From contig VGAC01000002.1 of NCBI GenBank assembly GCA_016870865.1, positions 25,792 through 89,791 on the forward strand: 64,000 nt of DNA, written 5' to 3'. A model generated the notes under the pieces. That model had not been told where the DNA came from, did no database searches, and saw nothing but the letters and a program-made list of their open reading frames with translations. Of this stretch, positions 6,247 through 64,000 are shown in pieces. A program made the translations under genes and the position numbers. Positions within the stretch are counted from its first letter, which is position 1; the number at the start of each line of letters is the position of its first letter. The DNA is from Actinomycetota bacterium. Lineage in GTDB: Bacteria > Actinomycetota > Acidimicrobiia > Acidimicrobiales > Ilumatobacteraceae.

Positions 6247-7607
6247 CAATGACTTCACCTGCACCCGGCGAGGCCCGCTCACCGGGCCTCTCCTACCAGG
6301 ACCTGCACAAGAACGACTCGCGGCCGGTGCCCGAGGTTCTGCGTTGGGTCAACTGGGAATTCATGGGCGATACCGACATTCCGGTCGCCGCCTACACCAA
6401 CCGTGAATGGCACGAACTCGAGAAGGAGAAAATCTGGAAGCGCGTCTGGCAGATGGCCTGTCGCGAAGAAGACGTACCGAACGTCGGCGACACGCTGCGC
6501 TACGACATCTGCGAAAACTCGATTCTCGTGGTGCGTACAGCGCCCGACACCGTGAAGGCGTTCCACAACGTGTGTCTGCACCGTGGGCGCCTGCTGCGCG
6601 AGTTCGACGGCCCAGCCAACGAACTGCGCTGCCCATTCCATGGTTTTTGCTGGAACCTCGACGGCTCACTCAAGCAGGTGCCGTGCGAATGGGACTTCCC
6701 GCACGTCGAAAAGGACGAATGGAACCTGCCCGAGGTGAGGGTCGGCACATGGGGCGGGTTCGTGTTCATCAACATGGACCCGAACGCCGAGTCGCTCGAA
6801 TCCTTCCTCGGTGACTTTCCGTGGCACTTCGAGCGTTGGCCGCTCGAGAAGCGCTACAAGAGCGTGCACGTCGCCAAGATCTTCCCGACGAACTGGAAGG
6901 TCGTGCAGGATGCCTTCAGCGAGGCCTTCCACGTCGTGGCCACCCACCCACAGTTGCTGTCGAGCATCGGTGACGCCAATTCGCAGTACGACTGGAAGGG
7001 CAACTACTCGCGCGCGATCACGCCGAACGGCACTCCGAGCCCGCACATCAAATACGTGCCCACGCAGCAAGAGATGTTCGACGCGGTGGCCGACAAGCGT
7101 CTCGACGAGGAACCGTCGGTCGTTCTGCCGCCCGGGGTCACTGCGCGAGAGATGTTCGGCAACGGTGGTCGTGCGACCATGCACGACGTCTTGGGCGACA
7201 AAGCCGACGACTTCTGTGATGCCGAGTTCAGCGACAGCATCTATTACACGCTGTTTCCGAACTTCCATCCGTGGGGCGCGTTCAACCGCATTTGCTACCG
7301 CTTCCGTCCGTATGAGGACCGCCACGACATGTCGATCATGGAGTGCATGTACCTCGAGCCGTACGACGAGTCGAAGCCCAAACCGCCGGCGGCACCGATC
7401 CACTGGCTGGGTGTCGACGACGACTGGGCCGAGGCACCCGAACTGGGCAACCTCGCCCGCGTCTTCAACCAGGACACGTTCAATCTTCCGAAGGTGCAAC
7501 GCGGCCTGCGGGCAATGACGAAGCCCGGCGTCACCTTGGCGAACTATCAGGAAACGAAAATTCGCCACGTGCACATGCTCATGAACCGGTGGTTCCAAAA
7601 GCCCTGA
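6243..7607 (+). CDS. Rieske [2Fe-2S] non-heme iron oxygenase, alpha-subunit type
   Basis: Internal ATG at 6243 (MTMTSPAP...). Rieske motif CLHRG...CPFHGF and mononuclear-iron region NWKVVQDAFSEAFHVVATH. The upstream part of track ORF 5634..7607 is junk. Confidence 0.88.
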   Translation: MTMTSPAPGEARSPGLSYQDLHKNDSRPVPEVLRWVNWEFMGDTDIPVAAYTNREWHELEKEKIWKRVWQMACREEDVPNVGDTLRYDICENSILVVRTAPDTVKAFHNVCLHRGRLLREFDGPANELRCPFHGFCWNLDGSLKQVPCEWDFPHVEKDEWNLPEVRVGTWGGFVFINMDPNAESLESFLGDFPWHFERWPLEKRYKSVHVAKIFPTNWKVVQDAFSEAFHVVATHPQLLSSIGDANSQYDWKGNYSRAITPNGTPSPHIKYVPTQQEMFDAVADKRLDEEPSVVLPPGVTAREMFGNGGRATMHDVLGDKADDFCDAEFSDSIYYTLFPNFHPWGAFNRICYRFRPYEDRHDMSIMECMYLEPYDESKPKPPAAPIHWLGVDDDWAEAPELGNLARVFNQDTFNLPKVQRGLRAMTKPGVTLANYQETKIRHVHMLMNRWFQKP

Positions 7608-7619
7608 CGGGCAAATTGA

Positions 7620-9005
<1,386 letters not shown>

Positions 9006-10175
9006 TCAGCCGGCAATGACACGGGCAGCGATGCCCGCAACGAGTGCCGTACGGAACGGAATCGTCTCGACGATCACGTGCTCGCTCACCCCGTGCGCAC
9101 CGCCGCCCACCGCGCCGAGACCATCGAGGGTCTTGACGCCGATTGCCGCGGTGAAATTGCCGTCGGATCCGCCGCCCACCGCCACGCCAGCGATGTCGCG
9201 GCCGTCGATCTCGCCCGCCACCTCTCGGGCCAATGCGAAGAGTTCCGCCGACATCGATTCGTGCAGTGGCGGACGGTGGAGGCTGCCCGACACGGTGATC
9301 TTCGCCCCGTTGACGACGGGCTGCAGCGAGTTCATCAAGGACTCGACACGGGCTTTTTCCTCGGGCACCACGACGCGTGCATCGACGACTATCGAGGCAC
9401 GATCGGGCACGGTGTTGTCAGTCGTGCCTGCACTGGCCAAGGTCGGTGTCACGGTCGTACCAAGCTCGGGTTTTCCGAAACCGTTGATCACCCCCACCTG
9501 GTGGGCCAACTCGACCAGCGCATTGATTCCCTTTTCGGGTTCGAGTCCGGCGTGTGATGCACGACCCTCAATCGACACGTCGAACGTTCCGGTGCCCTTG
9601 CGTGCCACTTTCAACGCGCCGCCGTCGGCACTCGGCTCGAGCACGAGGACCGCGTCGACGCTGCGCGCCATTTCTTCCACGAGGCCTCGACTGGCTTTGG
9701 ATCCAACCTCTTCATCCGCGGTGAACAACATCGCCACGCGGGAGAGGTCGAAACCCGAGTCGCGGAGGATTCGTGTCGCGTACACGGCCTGCACGATGCC
9801 TGCCTTCATGTCAAAGACACCCGGCCCGCGCAGCACACCGGCCTCGTTGGTGAACGGTCGCTGCTCGAGCGAACCCACCTGGTGCACCGTGTCGTGATGG
9901 CCGAGGAACAGCACCGCCGGGCGCGCCGATGGCCGCACGACCACGTGCGGGCCGACGGGTGATTCCATCACTTCTGCCACCATCCCCGTTTCGCGCTCGA
10001 TGAGTTCGGCGACGCAACGTGCACCGACCGCCACGCGTTCGGCGTCACGCGACGGTGATTCCACCGAGACGAGTCGACCGATGTCTGCGACGGCGGCTGC
10101 GAGCGACTCGGTCGCTGCGACAAGGAAAGGGTGCACGGGAAAAGAATAGGGTGAATCGATGGATTTCATCGCCAA
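9006..10175 (-). CDS. M20 family metallopeptidase (carboxypeptidase/deacylase type)
   Basis: 389 aa with LGHHDTV, FTADEEVGS and a C-terminal GGGSDGNF. The start could be ATG 10169 rather than 10175, which would avoid overlap with the divergent gene. Confidence 0.8.
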   Translation of the reverse strand: MAMKSIDSPYSFPVHPFLVAATESLAAAVADIGRLVSVESPSRDAERVAVGARCVAELIERETGMVAEVMESPVGPHVVVRPSARPAVLFLGHHDTVHQVGSLEQRPFTNEAGVLRGPGVFDMKAGIVQAVYATRILRDSGFDLSRVAMLFTADEEVGSKASRGLVEEMARSVDAVLVLEPSADGGALKVARKGTGTFDVSIEGRASHAGLEPEKGINALVELAHQVGVINGFGKPELGTTVTPTLASAGTTDNTVPDRASIVVDARVVVPEEKARVESLMNSLQPVVNGAKITVSGSLHRPPLHESMSAELFALAREVAGEIDGRDIAGVAVGGGSDGNFTAAIGVKTLDGLGAVGGGAHGVSEHVIVETIPFRTALVAGIAARVIAG

Positions 10176-11043: not shown

Positions 11044-11121
11044 TCAGAGCGTCGTGACGACCCGCGAGCAGTCGAGTCGCGGCAGCGGTGGATCGTCCCC
11101 GAATTCGTGGCGGAAGGTCGG

Positions 11122-11207
11122 TGCCCGGGGTGGGGATCGAACCCACACGGTCCTTTCGGACCAGGGGGGTTTAAGCCCCCCGCGTCTGCCAATTCCGCCA
11201 CCCGGAC
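11122..11207 (-). tRNA. tRNA-Leu (anticodon UAA)
   Basis: The reverse complement folds as a class II tRNA: acceptor GUCCGGG/CCCGGGC, anticodon loop CUUAAAC, long variable arm GGUCCGAAAGGACC and T-loop GGUUCGAUCC. CCA is not encoded. Confidence 0.9.
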
Positions 11208-18755: not shown

Positions 18756-19637
18756 ATGTCCACGTCATCGGTCGGATCCATGCGGGTCAGCGCCCGCGGC
18801 ATGGACTTCCACTGCCTGACGATGGGCAGCGGTCCACTCGCCCTCTTGCTGCACGGTTTTCCCGACTCGGCGAGTTCGTGGATCCCGTTGATGCAACGAC
18901 TCGCCGACCGTGGCTGGAGTGCGGTCGCCCCCTACATGCGCGGCTACGCCCCGAGTGCGGTTCCCCCCGACGGGTGCTTCCAGACGGCGGCACTCGCCGC
19001 CGATGCCGTCGCACTCCACGAGGCCCTCGGCGGGGGCGGTGACGCGGTGATCATCGGCCACGACTGGGGGGCACCGGCCGCCTACGGCGCGGCTGTTCTG
19101 GCACCCGAAAGGTGGCGCCGCGTCGTGGGCATGGCCGTGCCACCGGGGCCCGCCGTGGGTGCGGCGCTCGTCGGCAACCTCGAGCAGTTGAAGCGCAGTT
19201 GGTACATGTTCTTCTTTCAGCACCCCCTCTCGGATCTCGTCGTTGGGGCGAACGACCTGGCCTACATCGACATGTTGTGGGCCGACTGGTCGCCCGGGTT
19301 CGACGGCGCGGCGGCGGTCGCCGCCACGAAAGATGCCCTGCGCGACCCGGCCAATCTTGCAGCCGCACTCGGCTACTACCGCGCCACTCTCGGCGTCGGC
19401 AAGAAGGACCCCGCGCTTGCCGACTTGCAGGCGCGCATGGGCTCGGAAGTGCCCACGCAGCCACTGCTCTACCTGCACGGTGCGAACGACGGCTGTATCG
19501 GCCGCGAGGTGGCCGAATTCGCCGCCGGTCTCGCGCCCGCCAACGTCGAGGTTCGCATCGTCGGTGGTGCGGGCCACTTCCTGCAACTCGAACAATCGGA
19601 CACCGTGGCCCAACACGTGCTGGGCTGGATCTCGTGA
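18756..19637 (+). CDS. alpha/beta hydrolase (epoxide hydrolase-like)
   Basis: LALLLHGFPDSASSW (HGFP motif), nucleophile elbow IIGHDWGA and C-terminal GAGHFLQLE. The start is either ATG 18756 or ATG 18780. Confidence 0.85.
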   Translation: MSTSSVGSMRVSARGMDFHCLTMGSGPLALLLHGFPDSASSWIPLMQRLADRGWSAVAPYMRGYAPSAVPPDGCFQTAALAADAVALHEALGGGGDAVIIGHDWGAPAAYGAAVLAPERWRRVVGMAVPPGPAVGAALVGNLEQLKRSWYMFFFQHPLSDLVVGANDLAYIDMLWADWSPGFDGAAAVAATKDALRDPANLAAALGYYRATLGVGKKDPALADLQARMGSEVPTQPLLYLHGANDGCIGREVAEFAAGLAPANVEVRIVGGAGHFLQLEQSDTVAQHVLGWIS

Positions 19638-21070
19638 CAAAGCCCGTGCTCCCCGACGGTCTGGTGGCCGTCGTCAAACGCGAATGCGCAACCTGCGTGA
19701 TGACCGAGCCGGTACTCGCCACCATCGCCGCATCGACGACCCTGAGCGTCTTCACCCAGGACGACGCGGCCTTCCCCGAATCGGTTCCCCATTCCCACGA
19801 TTCGGACCTGTCGATCTCGTGGCACCACGACATCGAGACGGTACCCACCCTCATCCGCGTCGAGAACGGCGTCGAAGTCGACCGCACCGTCGGCTGGAGC
19901 CGCGTTGCATGGCGAGCCATCACCGGTATCGGTGATCTCGGCGAAGAACTCCCCGTCATGCGACCGGGCTGCGGCTCGCTCAGCGTCGACCCCGACCTCG
20001 TCGACAAACTGCGTGCGCGCTTCACCGGTTCGGTTCTCACGGCACGACACATCGACATGGCATCCGCCGAGGACGAGTTCGAGTCGATGTTCAATCGTGG
20101 CTGGACCGACGGCCTACCCGTGATTCCACCCACGGCCGAACGTGTGTTGCGAATGCTCGCCGGCACCACGCGCGCGCCCGACGAGATCGTTGCGGTTGCA
20201 CCACCCGACCTCGTGCCCCTCAGCGTCGAGAAGATCGCCATCAATGCGGTCATGGCCGGCTGTCTGCCCGAGTACATGCCGTGGGTCATCGCCGCGCTCG
20301 AAGCAGTGTGCAACGACAGGTTCAACATGCACGGTGTGCTCGCCACGACGATGCCCGTCGGTCCGGTGATCGTGTGCAACGGCCCCGGCACCAAGCGCAT
20401 CGGTATGAACAGCGGAATAAATGTGTTCGGCCAGGGCAACCGCGCGAACATGACGATCGGACGTGCGGTGCAACTGGCGATTCGCAACGTCGGTGGTGGC
20501 CGACCGGGCGAGGTCGACCGCGCGACGCACGGCAATCCGGGCAAGCTGAGCTTTTGTTTCGCCGAGGACGAGGACGGCTCCCCCTTCGGCTCGCTCGCAT
20601 CCGAGCGCGGAATCCCCCCGGGCACCGATGCCCTCACCGTCTTCGCCGGTGAGGGTCCGCGTTGTGCCGTCGACCAACTCGCTCGAACGCCCGACGAACT
20701 CACGAACTCGTTCGCTGCCTGCCTGCGCAGCGTGATGCACCCGAAGTCGGCGCTGGCCTTCGACGTGTTGCTCGTCGTGAGCCCCGACCACTCACGCATC
20801 TACGCCGAGGCCGGTTGGGCTCGCGGGCGGATCCTGAGGGAGTTGCATGCGCGGCTTGAGATCGAGGCGAACTTGATCCTTCGCGGCGTCGACGGCATGG
20901 CCGAGGGTCTGCCCGATCGCTTCCGTGATCGCACGGTGCCGAAGTTCCGACCCGACGGGATTCTCTTGGCCCACGCCGGCGGCGGTGCGGGACTGTTCTC
21001 GTCGATCATCGCGGGTTGGGCGAACGGTGACATGGGCAGCCAGCCCGTCACCGTCGCGGTGAAGAGTTGA
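19634..21070 (+). CDS. thioredoxin-fold (CxxC) domain fused to an uncharacterised ~330-aa conserved domain
   Basis: GTG at 19634 overlaps the upstream TGA (GTGA). The N-terminal ~110 aa has LVAVVKRECATCV (CxxC) and the cis-Pro loop ETVPTLIRVENG of thioredoxins. The remainder (…NRGWTDGLPVIPPT…INAVMAGC…HGNPGKLSFCFAED…) I cannot assign. The upstream part of track ORF 19112..21070 is out-of-frame overlap. Confidence 0.75.
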   Translation: MTKPVLPDGLVAVVKRECATCVMTEPVLATIAASTTLSVFTQDDAAFPESVPHSHDSDLSISWHHDIETVPTLIRVENGVEVDRTVGWSRVAWRAITGIGDLGEELPVMRPGCGSLSVDPDLVDKLRARFTGSVLTARHIDMASAEDEFESMFNRGWTDGLPVIPPTAERVLRMLAGTTRAPDEIVAVAPPDLVPLSVEKIAINAVMAGCLPEYMPWVIAALEAVCNDRFNMHGVLATTMPVGPVIVCNGPGTKRIGMNSGINVFGQGNRANMTIGRAVQLAIRNVGGGRPGEVDRATHGNPGKLSFCFAEDEDGSPFGSLASERGIPPGTDALTVFAGEGPRCAVDQLARTPDELTNSFAACLRSVMHPKSALAFDVLLVVSPDHSRIYAEAGWARGRILRELHARLEIEANLILRGVDGMAEGLPDRFRDRTVPKFRPDGILLAHAGGGAGLFSSIIAGWANGDMGSQPVTVAVKS

Positions 21071-47847: not shown

Positions 47848-47923
47848 TGGCACTCCCAACGGGATTCGAACCCGTGCCGCCACCTTGAGAGGGTGGTGTC
47901 CTAGGCCACTAGACGATGGGAGC
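47848..47923 (-). tRNA. tRNA-Glu (anticodon CUC)
   Basis: The reverse complement is GCUCCCAUCGUCUAGUGGCCUAGGACACCACCCUCUCAAGGUGG...GGUUCGAAUCCCGU UGGGAGU G CCA. It has a cloverleaf with anticodon loop CUCUCAA. CCA is encoded. Confidence 0.9.
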
Positions 47924-47985
47924 CTGGGAGTCGAGAGACTATCAGCGGACCAAAAACTTCGGCCTGCACCTCGAGTGTCAAATTG

Positions 47986-48057
47986 CTGGGGAGCAAGGAA
48001 TCGAACCCTGAATAACAGAACCAGAATCTGCTGTGTTGCCAGTTACACCACTCCCCA
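47986..48057 (-). tRNA. tRNA-Gln (anticodon CUG)
   Basis: The reverse complement is UGGGGAGUGGUGUAACUGGCAACACAGCAGAUUCUGGUUCUGU...GGUUCGAUUCCUUGCUCCCCA G. The acceptor is UGGGGAG/CUCCCCA and the anticodon loop is UUCUGGU. Confidence 0.9.
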
Positions 48058-53619: not shown

Positions 53620-53691
53620 GCCCTCGTAGCTCAGGGGATAGAGCGTCGGCCTCCGGAGCCGGATGCGCAGGTTCGAATCCTGCCGAGGGCA
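53620..53691 (+). tRNA. tRNA-Arg (anticodon CCG)
   Basis: GCCCUCGUAGCUCAGGGGAUAGAGCGUCGGCCUCCGGAGCCGGAUGCGCAGGUUCGAAUCCUGCCGAGGGCA. The acceptor is GCCCUCG/CGAGGGC and the anticodon loop is CUCCGGA. Confidence 0.9.
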
Positions 53692-53717
53692 CTGGCGAGC
53701 CGTGTGATACTTCCCAC

Positions 53718-60980: not shown

Positions 60981-61079
60981 TCGACAATTATCTACCCACC
61001 GGTAACCGGAGGACGAATTCACCTTCCTGCAACATCCGCCGCACATTCCCCAGACGGGTAATTTCTAGGATGGTCGTCC

Positions 61080-61337
61080 ATGGCGAACAGTCCCCTTGGG
61101 CCGGCCGAGACCGCCGTTCTGCGCGTCCTCGTCGACCGTGTGGGACGCGTCACGGGGCGCCCCGACCTGAACCGACTTGCCGGCCTCGACGGCTCCGAAC
61201 GTCGGTGCGATGCCGCGCTTGTCACGCTGCGGCGTCTCCTTGGGCCGGGCTCGATCAAAACCATTCGGCGACGTGGCTGGATGCTTTCCGAACAAAGCGT
61301 CGATAGTGCGCGGTTTCTGCTTGACTCTCGGAGGTGA
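61080..61337 (+). CDS. stand-alone winged-helix (OmpR/PhoB C-terminal type) DNA-binding protein
   Basis: 85 aa. LGPAETAVLRVLVDRVGRVTGRPDL...CDAALVTLRRLLGPGSIKTIRRRGWML matches the Trans_reg_C pattern, and there is no receiver domain. Its TGA overlaps the GTG of the next ORF. Confidence 0.65.
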   Translation: MANSPLGPAETAVLRVLVDRVGRVTGRPDLNRLAGLDGSERRCDAALVTLRRLLGPGSIKTIRRRGWMLSEQSVDSARFLLDSRR

Positions 61338-64000
61338 TTTCGTCGACTGTATTTGCAGCCAGCGGAGCGGGCACTCTCGACTTGGGTCGGGTTCTCCTCG
61401 AACTTGCCCTCATCCTCGCTGCCGCAAAGTTGATCGGTGAACTGGCGGAAAAAATCGGCACACCCGCCGTCCTGGGAGAAATCCTCGCCGGCGTCCTCAT
61501 CGGACCATCGGTGCTCGGCTTGGTGGAACCATCAGACTCGCTCTTTTTGATCGCAGAACTCGGAGCAATCCTTCTACTGATGCAAGTCGGAATGGAAACC
61601 GACCTAAACGAAATGCGACGCGTGGGTCGCGCAGCCCTCAGCGTCGGTCTCATCGGCGTGGCCCTGCCGCTCATCTTCGGTTCGGTGACGGGCCTGGCGT
61701 TTGGCGAGAGTGGAAACACTGCGCTGTTCGTGGGGGCGACCCTCACAGCCACGAGTGTTGGCATCACGGCCCGCGTGTTCGGCGATCTCAGGGTATTGAC
61801 GACAAGCGAAGCGCGTATCGTTCTTGGCGCCGCGGTGGCCGACGATGTGCTTGGCCTCATCATCCTCACCATTGTCACGCGCATGGTCGAAGAGGGGACC
61901 ATCGGTATCGGTACCATCGCAACGACAACGCTGACGGCCTTCGCATTTCTCGCCGTCGCGTCGCTCGTAGGCCTCTCCGCGGTGCCAAAAATCATTGCGC
62001 TCGCGGCGAAGAGGGCTTCTTCACCCGCAGCGGTTTCGGTGCTTGCCGTCGGTATTGCCCTTGCGTATTCGGGTGTCGCAGACGCAGCGAAACTTGCACC
62101 GATTATCGGTGCATTCGTCGCGGGAACCGCTCTCGGACGCACGGTTGCCCATCAGCGAATCGAGCGTGACGTGGCTGCCGTCGCATCTCTGTTCATCCCG
62201 GTTTTCTTCCTCCAAATCGGTATCGAGACCGACGTCGCGTCGATGGCGCGACCAAAGGTTCTGGCGATTGCAGGATTGCTCTTCGTCGTGGGCGCGGCGA
62301 CAAAGATCGTGGCCGGCATCGGAGTGGGCCGCAACGGCGGTGACAGGTTGTTGGTCGGCCTCGGCATGATGCCGCGCGGCGAAGTGGGTCTGATTTTCGC
62401 GACGATCGGCCTCGGTGTCGGGGTGTTCGACGACGACCTCTACGCGGCTCTCGTGCTCGTCGTCCTTGCGACGACGGTGGTCAGCCCTGCCGCTCTCCGT
62501 TGGCGGATCAGACGCAACGGCATCGAGGGCGCTGGGACCGCTGGGGACGGGGAGATCAGGCCTGAATCCGGCTGGTTGAGCGTGGTCGACGGTCGAATTG
62601 ACCTCGCCGCGAATCCGCCGACTTCGGCGATAGCGGACGTTTTGCTGGCTGCCGCGCTCCTTTCGGTCGACAACCAGCCAAGTGACACGCTGCTCGATTG
62701 GGTCACCGCGCACAGGGACGCCTCACTCGAATGGGACCGCGAATCAACGACGATCCTGCTCGAGGTTCTTCGTCATGGATCGCCCCGCTCCTGGCATCTT
62801 CTCGAGGCAGCGAATCTGTTCGACCGCACGATCCCTGAGATTGCCGCGGCGCTTCGCTCACGCGCAGCGGACAACATGGAGACTGGCACGACCCAACTCG
62901 TACGTTTTCCCACGGTCGAAGCACTGCGTGAAGAAACTGCTGTTGCGTCGTCGCACAGTGACACTCTTGTGCTCGCGGCGTTTCTGGTCGACATCGTGGC
63001 ATCTCCCGACCGGGTGCCCGCGATCCTCCATCATCTCGACCTCGACCTCAACACCGCGGGCGAGGTGGAAGATCTGCTCAACGGTGCAAAACTCCTGCGC
63101 GGCGCCGTCGAACACATGCCCAATCACATCGACGACAGAATCCTTCGAGACATTGCCCATGGTCTGCGTCAGCCGGGCATCGTCGAACGCAGTCGGCTGC
63201 TGGCCGATGCGATCGGAGGACTCGAAACGTGGCAGCGCACTGCGATGGTCGACTTCACCGTCAAAGTACAGGCCCTCCTCGCCCATCCAGAACTATTGAG
63301 TGGCGTCGATGACTCGCTCGCCGACATGCGACGCAGGCAAACAGCCGAACTCACCCCCGACCCCACACTTGTCGAGCGCATCAATCTTGCGCCGACGACG
63401 TACGTGCTGGCACATGAACCCGAGCGACTCCTTCAACAGATTCGCCTTGTCGAACCTGCTCCCCAGGGAAAGTCGGTTCGTACGACGGTTTGCGCGACGA
63501 GCGAACCGTCGCAGTTCGAAATCACCGTCGCGTGTCGCGACCGGCGGGGCCTCTTGTCGCGTCTCGCGGGTGCACTGGCGGATGCGGGCTACTCGGTGAG
63601 GACGGCAAGTCTCGCCACATGGCCCGACGGCGCGGTTCTCGACACGTTCGTCGTGACCGCCGACCCAGCTCCGGAGCCCAAAGTGTTGTCGAAGATCCTG
63701 TCACGGGCGCTTCGTGGTCGACGAAGTACGCGGCGCATTCAGGGACCTGCCCCGCGTCTCACGATCGACAACGCCATCCATCCATGGCACACGATCCTGC
63801 GCGTCACCGGCCTCGACCGTATCGGACTCTTGGCGGCGGTCAGCGCCGCCCTGAGTCGCGCGGGCGTCATCGTTCATCATGCAACGATCCAAACCCAAGA
63901 CGGCATGGCCGACGACACCTTTGAGGTATCCAATCGTGCGGGGCAGAAGTTGACCGACGACATCATCGTGCGCGTTCGTAGGAACCTTTCAAAATTGAGC
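61334..64000 (+). CDS. cation/proton antiporter (Kef/CPA2-like, ~390 aa) fused to a GlnD-like C-terminal region with two ACT domains; 3' end beyond the window
   Basis: I translated this frame by hand from 61334 to 64000: 889 codons with no stop. The N-terminus LLELALILAAAKLIGELAEKIGTPAVLGEILAGVLIGPSVLG and later MMPRGEVGLIFA are Na_H_Exchanger hallmarks. The C-terminus has FEITVACRDRRGLLSRLAGALADAGYSV..A....DGAVLDTFVV and TILRVTGLDRIGLLAAVSAALSRAGVIV..A.I.T.DGMADDTFEV (ACT x2). It is absent from the ORF track, presumably because it runs off the end. The exact start is uncertain. Confidence 0.8.
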   Translation, partial: MISSTVFAASGAGTLDLGRVLLELALILAAAKLIGELAEKIGTPAVLGEILAGVLIGPSVLGLVEPSDSLFLIAELGAILLLMQVGMETDLNEMRRVGRAALSVGLIGVALPLIFGSVTGLAFGESGNTALFVGATLTATSVGITARVFGDLRVLTTSEARIVLGAAVADDVLGLIILTIVTRMVEEGTIGIGTIATTTLTAFAFLAVASLVGLSAVPKIIALAAKRASSPAAVSVLAVGIALAYSGVADAAKLAPIIGAFVAGTALGRTVAHQRIERDVAAVASLFIPVFFLQIGIETDVASMARPKVLAIAGLLFVVGAATKIVAGIGVGRNGGDRLLVGLGMMPRGEVGLIFATIGLGVGVFDDDLYAALVLVVLATTVVSPAALRWRIRRNGIEGAGTAGDGEIRPESGWLSVVDGRIDLAANPPTSAIADVLLAAALLSVDNQPSDTLLDWVTAHRDASLEWDRESTTILLEVLRHGSPRSWHLLEAANLFDRTIPEIAAALRSRAADNMETGTTQLVRFPTVEALREETAVASSHSDTLVLAAFLVDIVASPDRVPAILHHLDLDLNTAGEVEDLLNGAKLLRGAVEHMPNHIDDRILRDIAHGLRQPGIVERSRLLADAIGGLETWQRTAMVDFTVKVQALLAHPELLSGVDDSLADMRRRQTAELTPDPTLVERINLAPTTYVLAHEPERLLQQIRLVEPAPQGKSVRTTVCATSEPSQFEITVACRDRRGLLSRLAGALADAGYSVRTASLATWPDGAVLDTFVVTADPAPEPKVLSKILSRALRGRRSTRRIQGPAPRLTIDNAIHPWHTILRVTGLDRIGLLAAVSAALSRAGVIVHHATIQTQDGMADDTFEVSNRAGQKLTDDIIVRVRRNLSKLS

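Follow-up and report, generated by a model that had tools for sequence, protein, structure and literature searches.

A gene at the 3′ end of a 64,000-nucleotide stretch of Ilumatobacteraceae DNA (contig VGAC01000002.1; this whole stretch is called the window) encodes a fusion of a predicted NapA-type cation/proton antiporter of the CPA2 family with a cytoplasmic module that appears to descend from the back half of GlnD, the P-II uridylyltransferase. The reading that we favor, and that we hold to be somewhat better than even, is that of an antiporter gated by an amino acid, probably glutamine, and regulated through the GlnD-derived module. An original prediction made from the letters of the window had described an uncalled open reading frame (ORF) for a Kef-type antiporter joined to a GlnD-like regulatory half, which would link ion exchange to nitrogen status.

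The fusion gene is genuine and conserved

Translation of frame +1 from the GTG at 61334 to the window end at 64000 on the plus strand gave 889 sense codons and no stop. A database protein was identical (100%) to all 889 of these residues and has a full length of 892 amino acids (aa), showing that only the codons for S-E-T and the stop of the gene, which the original prediction had placed beyond the window, lie outside it. The identical protein was called with the same GTG start by the gene callers of the Joint Genome Institute (JGI) on 23 contigs of 20 to 175 kb from several lake metagenome samples. The start shares nucleotides with the stop codon of the 85-codon ORF that precedes it (GTGA, 61334-61337), and the length of the N terminus agrees with that of the relatives. 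The frame is thus open as predicted, but it is not uncalled, as public gene calls exist under generic names. It was missing from the ORF list of the window because that list omits ORFs running off the source end. The two minus-strand ORFs reported in its place, 61255-62142 and 62021-62713, are antisense shadows, as had been proposed; the G+C content of the fusion gene is 60 to 65%.

A first homology search returned more than 100 full-length proteins of 878 to 897 aa, down to 46% identity, all of which contain Na_H_Exchanger and ACT domains. The architecture proved common to 159 full-length relatives (860 to 960 aa, 36 to 81% identity), and the CPA2 half lies 5′ of the C-terminal half in all 68 genome loci with enough room for both. 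A relative of the fusion is encoded by 139 reference species; the best 80 of these 139 belong without exception to the Acidimicrobiia, the majority being Ilumatobacteraceae or “acIV” freshwater metagenome-assembled genomes (MAGs). The middle region alone, used in an exhaustive profile search of 1.84e9 proteins, matched 259 representative clusters, nearly all of them at about residues 395 to 665 of proteins of 870 to 920 aa, indicating that the middle domain is essentially confined to the fusion architecture. Profile matches of odd length, suspected to represent alternative architectures, were 5′-truncated fragments that still start inside the antiporter domain.

The 23 identical contigs, 159 relatives, 68/68 loci and 139 species exclude a chimera or a frameshift that would have joined an antiporter gene to a truncated glnD. 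The search for orthologous fusions therefore established that the junction is real and that the fusion is a genuine conserved gene. An artefact of this kind, or a Kef-type glutathione-gated K+ efflux protein with a misread tail, is an extremely improbable explanation, in favor of which we found nothing but the unusual architecture and the JGI name “KefB”.

A predicted NapA-type membrane half

The N terminus of the fusion protein is a transporter with 13 transmembrane (TM) helices. Residues 32 to 389 matched Pfam Na_H_Exchanger with an E value of 2.4e-57 (195 bits, cut-off 26.2). Thermus thermophilus NapA (PDB 5bz2/4bwz) aligned over residues 21 to 390 of the fusion and 7 to 373 of NapA with an E value of 1e-64, whereas KefC reached only 1e-15. 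The NCBIfam models for KefC and KefB scored 47 to 64 bits, against cut-offs of 750 to 800, and matched the membrane part only. No Pfam family for an RCK or TrkA domain matched the fusion protein at E ≤ 1.

In electrogenic NapA-type exchangers, a TM Lys forms a salt bridge with the first Asp of a DD motif, whereas KefC-type K+ exchangers have a QD motif and a Thr where NapA carries Val (PMC11150392, PMC6181914). The electrogenic signature has been described as Asp-Asp at motif positions 6 and 7 with Lys at position 8 (PMC6181914). In the fusion family, T140, S141, D170, D171, K324, R348 and E350 are invariant in 159/159 relatives, and the position equivalent to KefC T127 is Val or Ile (V142 here), as in NapA. 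The DD motif with its Lys, the lack of an RCK domain and the far closer similarity to NapA than to KefC argue that the membrane half is a NapA-type, not a Kef-type, CPA2 antiporter with an intact predicted ion site. These features also rule out the Kef-type alternative mentioned above. The CPA2 assignment of the original prediction thus stands, whereas its Kef label, which stems from automatic annotation (the automatic JGI name of the fusion being “KefB”), does not. The antiporter is probably electrogenic, and by analogy elevator-type exchange of one cation for two protons would be the default expectation.

A GlnD-derived cytoplasmic module

We built family hidden Markov models (HMMs) from the 159 members and ran them directly on GlnD sequences, with Escherichia coli GlnD taken from strain MG1655 (b0167); the E values refer to one target. 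The whole C-terminal half was collinear with residues 404 to 883 of E. coli GlnD (133 bits, E 5e-43), which bears out the proposal that the C-terminal half of about 480 aa parallels that of GlnD. The middle-region HMM (residues 405 to 665) matched the HD region of E. coli GlnD, residues 404 to 620, with 32.6 bits (E 3e-12). It also matched residues 364 to 564 of an Acidimicrobiia GlnD, that of locus L084, with 57.5 bits (E 7e-20), a match that spans Pfam HD at 422 to 504. The controls did not exceed 4.4 bits for 500 GlnD shuffles and 3.2 bits for 189 unrelated ORFs of the window. The assignment of a degenerate HD domain emerged only in this way. Searches of Pfam and NCBIfam with the middle region of 15 members taken singly (E ≤ 10) gave nothing useful, with one weak GlnD match (0.019) and Pfam HD undetected, and in the exhaustive middle-region search only members of the fusion family, and no GlnD, reached a library-wide E ≤ 1e-3.

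The family sequence llLAAlvlD aligned with IFIAALFHD of E. coli GlnD and LLLGALLHD of the Acidimicrobiia GlnD. Position 552, which corresponds to the His of the GlnD dyad, is Ala, Leu, Val, Tyr or Ile in the 159 relatives and never His, while D553 is kept in 151 of them. The other metal-ligand positions are not kept as His or Asp: the first metal-binding His is mostly replaced by Glu, and the last Asp is not conserved. The conserved motifs of the middle region are G-W, PP, R-S-W-R, E-L-D-P-T-H, L-A-A-F-x-x-D and L-A-H-P-E-L. Judged by homology, the middle region descends from the HD domain of GlnD and is catalytically degenerate, in agreement with the earlier suggestion of an HD-like region devoid of the catalytic His.

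The homology of residues 458 to 650 to the GlnD HD domain and the presence of adjoining P-II genes (see below) could also be accounted for by a membrane-anchored, still active GlnD-like enzyme that removes uridylyl or adenylyl groups from P-II. The loss of the dyad His in 159/159 relatives, the substitution of the first metal-binding His and the unconserved last Asp all argue against activity. Furthermore, Pfam HD detects the corresponding domain in the canonical GlnD of the lineage but misses this region. We consider an active enzyme very improbable and rejected it on the lost dyad His and the unconserved metal ligands.

The AlphaFold model of the middle domain had a mean confidence (pLDDT) of 86.6 and a predicted template modeling score (pTM) of 0.84. 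In a Foldseek search of the PDB its best match was a class-II tRNA nucleotidyltransferase (3wfs_C; TM score 0.54, probability 1.0, E 5e-3), poly(A) polymerase (3AQL) was also among the top fold matches, and no classical HD structure was matched. As in GlnD, class-II tRNA nucleotidyltransferases and poly(A) polymerase have an HD-superfamily helical body behind the nucleotidyltransferase head. We know of no GlnD structure in the PDB. The modeled fold is compatible with an HD-type helical body of the kind associated with nucleotidyltransferases, without being decisive.

The module continues with a GlnD-type linker and two ACT domains. Pfam ACT matched two stretches, residues 730 to 788 and 822 to 866, with 61.6 bits (cut-off 27). 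Residues 666 to 885 were matched by NCBIfam GlnD models (TIGR01693 624 to 845, the C-terminal ~220 residues, E 1e-25). The score against TIGR01693 was 90 bits with a family cut-off of 519.4, and the other GlnD models likewise remained far below their cut-offs. Conversely, the family C-terminal HMM scored 97 bits on residues 656 to 883 of E. coli GlnD. AlphaFold predicted the beta-alpha-beta-beta-alpha-beta fold in the ACT domains. Foldseek with the model of the whole C-terminal half returned ACT pairs only, the tandem-ACT matches in the PDB including 2nyi, SerB2 and aspartate kinase, and a PDB sequence search with the C-terminal half returned only a tandem-ACT protein. D736, L740, F772, D828 and L832 are conserved and match the Asp, Leu and Phe positions highlighted in GlnD-like ACT domains (PMC11190351). 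There were also weak Pfam matches to ACT families of the ACR type. The two GlnD-like ACT domains of the original prediction are thus confirmed by Pfam, by the GlnD alignment and by the model.

The nucleotidyltransferase part of GlnD was likewise absent as predicted: neither NTP_transf_2 nor GlnD_UR_UTase of Pfam matched the fusion, while both were found in the canonical GlnD of the same lineage at locus L084.

In GlnD, the HD domain carries the uridylyl-removing activity, and glutamine switches the activity of the enzyme (PMC4285133). The glutamine response of GlnD has been described as depending on its ACT domains (Zhang et al. 2010, as cited in PMC11190351), and an unrelated amylase is activated by glutamine through an ACT domain of the GlnD-like type (PMC11190351). 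By analogy, the ACT pair of the fusion most likely binds an amino acid, which would be glutamine as in GlnD.

The positions of these features, and of those described in the next sections, are collected in Table 1.

Table 1. Features of the fusion gene and its surroundings. Positions are those of the window unless a locus is named.
Feature	Position	Strand	Basis or remark
Four 11-bp-periodic nnnAC direct repeats, TTCAC-n6-GCAAC-n6-CGCAC-n6-CAGAC	61018..61055	+	Weak GlnR-box-like element
85-aa OmpR/PhoB-type winged-helix DNA-binding protein (predicted), no receiver domain	61080..61337	+	Stop overlaps the GTG of the fusion
Fusion gene	61334..64000	+	889 of 892 codons inside the window; 3 codons and stop outside
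CPA2 (NhaA-fold) antiporter domain, residues 32-389	61427..62500	+	Pfam Na_H_Exchanger; Thermus NapA match
D170-D171, predicted DD ion/proton-binding motif (NapA D156-D157)	61841..61846	+	Invariant 159/159
K324 (NapA K305, salt bridge to first Asp)	62303..62305	+	NapA alignment; invariant 159/159
Linker from last TM helix to cytoplasmic module, residues 391-408	62504..62557	+	Poorly conserved; pLDDT <50 at start of C-half model
Beta-hairpin and helices opening the cytoplasmic module, residues 409-457	62558..62704	+	Confident in AlphaFold model
Catalytically degenerate HD domain (predicted), residues ~458-650	62705..63283	+	Homologous to GlnD uridylyl-removing HD domain (family HMM)
V552-D553, position of GlnD HD dyad (E. 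coli H514-D515)	62987..62992	+	His lost
GlnD-type pre-ACT linker with Y-x-L-x-H-x-P motif, residues 666-725	63329..63508	+	Collinear with E. coli GlnD 656-711
ACT domain 1, residues ~726-795	63509..63718	+	Pfam ACT; R-D-R-R-G-L-L loop, W-P-D-G-A-V-L-D-T-F
ACT domain 2, residues ~808-889 (window ends 3 codons before stop)	63755..64000	+	Pfam ACT, ACT_4; alignment with GlnD 811-883
Predicted GlnR-type a1-b1-a2-b2 box, GCCAC-n6-GAAAC-n6-GCGAC-n6-GAAAC	L001 12718-12755 (~50 nt past window end)		Gap between fusion stop and P-II gene

The fusion gene lies in a glnD-like neighborhood

On the identical contigs, the gene order is an acyl-CoA dehydrogenase gene on the minus strand, the 85-aa ORF, the fusion, and then genes for P-II, Amt, a second P-II and an F420/FrhB-like protein. 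This order recurs, with two Amt genes, in a relative of 46% identity, and in another clade the fusion is located between the same backbone genes without the 85-aa ORF, P-II and Amt. P-II and Amt genes follow the fusion within 6 kb in 43 of the 65 loci whose downstream flank is 2.5 kb or longer. Both P-II proteins carry Tyr51. Actinobacterial glnD normally follows amtB and glnK as the third gene of their operon (PMC4285133); with its adjoining amt and P-II genes, the fusion thus occupies a neighborhood like that of glnD.

Canonical glnD was found within 10 kb on either side of the fusion only in L084, a locus from a divergent Actinomycetota MAG, and there is none in the window. At that locus, a canonical GlnD of 787 aa with NTP_transf_2, GlnD_UR_UTase, HD and ACT domains is encoded on the minus strand (6966-9326), convergently and directly after fusion-Amt-P-II. 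Since the two genes coexist there, the fusion is an additional paralogue of glnD and not its replacement, at least in L084. This arrangement hints at an origin of the fusion through local duplication beside amt-glnK-glnD.

The product of the 85-aa ORF, which was called as a gene in the JGI contigs, resembles winged helix-turn-helix (wHTH) DNA-binding domains. Pfam Trans_reg_C matched it below the cut-off (E 2e-4), NCBIfam gave the C-terminal DNA-binding domains of a HemD-wHTH protein (6e-9) and of RstA, and the RstA DNA-binding domain in the PDB matched with an E value of 0.008. The gene is translationally coupled to the fusion. It was found together with P-II/Amt in 41 of the 65 loci and in none without them; four loci have P-II/Amt only and 20 have neither. 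Fisher's test gave 4e-13 for this co-occurrence, the loci being phylogenetically non-independent. The 85-aa protein may be a GlnR-like local regulator without a receiver domain.

Downstream of the fusion, the gene for an F420-dependent FrhB/FpoF-like iron-sulfur protein (L001 15276-16487, plus strand) is a constant neighbor, with equivalent positions in more than 60 loci. In the loci without P-II/Amt, it starts 25 to 56 nucleotides past the fusion stop, a gap so short as to suggest that the two genes are co-transcribed.

Several loci, L008, L009, L012, L014, L019, L022, L044, L063, L067, L079 and L083, come from records titled “uncultured Bifidobacterium”, “Bifidobacterium breve”, “Acidobacteria bacterium”, “Ferrithrix thermotolerans DSM 19514” or “Acidimicrobium ferrooxidans DSM 10331”. 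These titles are probably mislabeled or placeholder taxonomy on loci of the Acidimicrobiia type.

Putative GlnR-type promoter elements

The actinobacterial GlnR box has an a1-b1-a2-b2 structure (gTnAc and GaAAC elements with 6-nucleotide spacers), and the amtB promoter is its classic example (PMC10235972). Of 83 loci, 38 contain one copy of the strict pattern nnnAC-n6-GAAAY-n6-nnnAC-n6-GAAAY, which in every case lies in the gap separating the fusion stop from the first P-II (or Amt) gene; neither strand has another copy in 1.14 Mb. The element fits a canonical predicted GlnR box, and its location between the fusion and P-II argues that it serves the downstream P-II/Amt operon.

Another repeated element precedes the wHTH-fusion pair, within the divergent promoter region. 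The underlying pattern, AC-n9 repeated four times, occurs twice in the 64-kb window, one occurrence being the repeats at 61018..61055. It is present in 14 of 44 regions upstream of wHTH genes versus none of 23 from the clade without wHTH, and a related GTnnAC-n5-GTnnAY tandem is found upstream of the operon in 29 loci. These repeats are a weak candidate for a GlnR-type element. Rfam at the gathering threshold identified only four tRNA genes in the whole window, and no riboswitch, glutamine element or other nitrogen-related RNA element near the fusion. The tRNA genes (Leu-TAA, Glu-CTC, Gln-CTG and Arg-CCG) are at positions 11120-11207, 47848-48057 and 53620-53692.

The genomic context thus lends independent support to the proposed link with nitrogen status, through the P-II, Amt and P-II genes and the GlnR-type box downstream of the fusion, whereas glutamine as the ligand and the gating of transport are what we infer.

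The same context raises the possibility that the module serves mainly as a scaffold. The GlnD-derived pseudo-enzyme would then dock a partner, P-II/GlnK or the winged-helix regulator, at the membrane in the manner of a “transceptor”, passing nitrogen or ion status on to transcription or to the control of Amt, with ion transport being secondary or the sensed signal. The HD domain of GlnD naturally acts on the modified T-loop of P-II. A docking role would be consistent with the retention of an HD domain that is conserved though catalytically dead (R-S-W-R, E516, D553 and L-A-H-P-E-L being invariant or nearly so), with the two Tyr51-containing P-II proteins and the Amt proteins encoded next to the fusion, with the coupled wHTH gene that strictly co-occurs with P-II/Amt, and with putative GlnR-type boxes in both promoter regions. 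However, the ion-binding site is invariant in 159/159 relatives, which argues for a working transporter, and the fusion is retained in the 20 loci where no wHTH, P-II or Amt gene is close by. Docking is moreover compatible with ligand gating of transport. As the main role of the module, we regard it as unlikely.

Proposed function

In the mechanism that we propose, the stand-alone or RCK-type regulation of a NapA-type monovalent cation/proton antiporter would have been replaced by a module copied from the back half of GlnD. Binding of the amino acid to the ACT pair would be relayed to the transporter by the pseudo-HD domain, as by the RCK domain in KefC, and cation/proton exchange would then track the nitrogen status of the cell. 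The candidate cations for the exchange are Na+, K+ and NH4+. Such exchange might serve to compensate cytoplasmic pH during uptake and assimilation of NH4+, to balance K+ with the glutamate/glutamine pool, or to export NH4+. Transcription would probably be under GlnR-type or wHTH control.

Several points weigh against this proposal. NapA, which transports Na+ and Li+, has the same ion site, and it is not evident why, physiologically, Na+/H+ exchange should be coupled to nitrogen. The ligand of the ACT domains cannot be deduced from their sequence. Residues 409 to 457, the first ~50 of the cytoplasmic part, lack a GlnD match: an HMM of residues 405 to 470 gave no significant match with GlnD (E 0.14 to 0.22). 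This region is conserved in its own right, with an invariant G-W, PP and W. In the AlphaFold model of the C-terminal half, the geometry between domains is uncertain (pTM 0.51). The protein of the window itself departs from the near-invariant E-L-D-P-T-H motif, with E-T-G-T-T-Q at residues 516 to 521 (62879-62896, plus strand). D518 is present in 153/159 relatives, and the window protein is the sole member with Gly518, which is not a sequencing error because the same sequence was found on 23 contigs. The repeats upstream of the wHTH-fusion pair are weak. Finally, the 20 of 65 loci that keep the fusion without wHTH, P-II or Amt nearby, all from one clade, indicate that the link to nitrogen is not obligatory, at least locally.

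A more specific variant for the exchanged ion is that the protein acts as an efflux valve for ammonium (or K+), which would expel NH4+ or K+ in exchange for H+ at high glutamine and so protect Acidimicrobiia of alkaline lakes from ammonium overload and alkalinization. The CPA2 system AmhT/AmhM of alkaliphilic Bacillus has a similar role. The neighboring Amt and P-II genes with their putative GlnR box, the predicted glutamine-sensor module of the GlnD type and the origin of the sequences from lake metagenome samples are all consistent with a valve. However, the ion site corresponds residue for residue to that of the Na+/Li+ antiporter NapA (A-T-S-V-G, DD, K, P-R-G-E), the QD motif and the Thr of the K+ site of KefC are missing, and nothing in the sequence favors NH4+. 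The valve therefore appears quite unlikely to us.

A broader evolutionary scenario is tentative, and we put it clearly below even. A duplicate of the back half of glnD would have lost its catalytic residues and been welded to a NapA-type antiporter beside the ancestral amt-glnK(-glnD) genes. The resulting pseudo-enzyme would sense glutamine and convert nitrogen status directly into a flux of ions or protons, possibly of ammonium, and it might also dock GlnK and/or the 85-aa mini-regulator at the membrane. It would then represent a hitherto unknown output branch of bacterial nitrogen signaling, operating alongside or without P-II modification, in an actinobacterial lineage that ranks among the most abundant in freshwater.

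If glutamine gating holds, nitrogen status would be coupled directly to cation/proton exchange, which bears on how cells keep pH, K+ and NH4+ in balance while they take up ammonium. The fusion would also be a natural example of a GlnD HD domain that survives as a pseudo-enzyme. The family appears confined to the acIV/Ilumatobacteraceae, abundant lake bacteria that are hard to culture, and may help to adapt them to waters that are alkaline or vary in nitrogen.

Full-text literature searches found no paper that describes a CPA antiporter with ACT or GlnD-like domains, in keeping with the view that the architecture had not been characterized before. CPA2 exchangers are known with RCK/KTN domains, and in those searches none was found with an ACT or GlnD-derived module. 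No NCBIfam or Pfam family covers the architecture, and the public names of the fusion proteins are generic (“cation:proton antiporter”, “NhaS3”, “KefB/ACT” or “hypothetical”).

Elsewhere in the window, two long ORFs of 652 and 582 aa overlap on opposite strands (19112-21070, plus strand, and 19051-20799, minus strand). Neither has a Pfam match, and NCBIfam gave only a weak thioredoxin-like match for the plus-strand ORF.

Comparison with known systems

The membrane half aligns end to end with Thermus thermophilus NapA (4BWZ, 5BZ2, 5BZ3), including the A-T-S-V-G segment of the unwound helix, D-D, the salt-bridge Lys and P-R-G-E. NapA has no cytoplasmic regulatory domain, in contrast with the ~500 additional GlnD-derived residues of the fusion.

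As in GlnD (TIGR01693), the HD region, the Y-x-x-x-H linker, ACT1 and ACT2 are collinear in the fusion, and amt and P-II genes adjoin it. The fusion differs from GlnD by the absence of NTP_transf_2, GlnD_UR_UTase and the His of the HD dyad, by a transporter as its N terminus, and by a score of 90 bits against a cut-off of 519.

The closest counterpart in overall design is found in KefC and KefB (PDB 8BXG), in which a CPA2 transporter is likewise followed by a C-terminal cytoplasmic domain that binds ligands, ligand binding being predicted in the fusion. In KefC, contact of this domain with the transporter module inhibits transport (PMC11150392). KefC is a K+-selective, electroneutral protein with a QD motif, and the ligands of its RCK Rossmann domain are AMP and glutathione, whereas the fusion has DD with Lys, and a pseudo-HD domain with two ACT domains.

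GlnD-type ACT domains are also attached to unrelated effectors in the plant ACR proteins and in the Chlamydomonas alpha-amylase AMA2. Those proteins are soluble and contain ACT domains only, unlike the fusion, which keeps a degenerate HD domain and has a membrane effector. Lastly, the modeled fold of the middle domain resembles that of class-II tRNA nucleotidyltransferases and poly(A) polymerase (3WFS chain C, 3AQL), a match of moderate significance. The fusion differs from them in lacking the nucleotidyltransferase head and in containing nothing that points to RNA binding.

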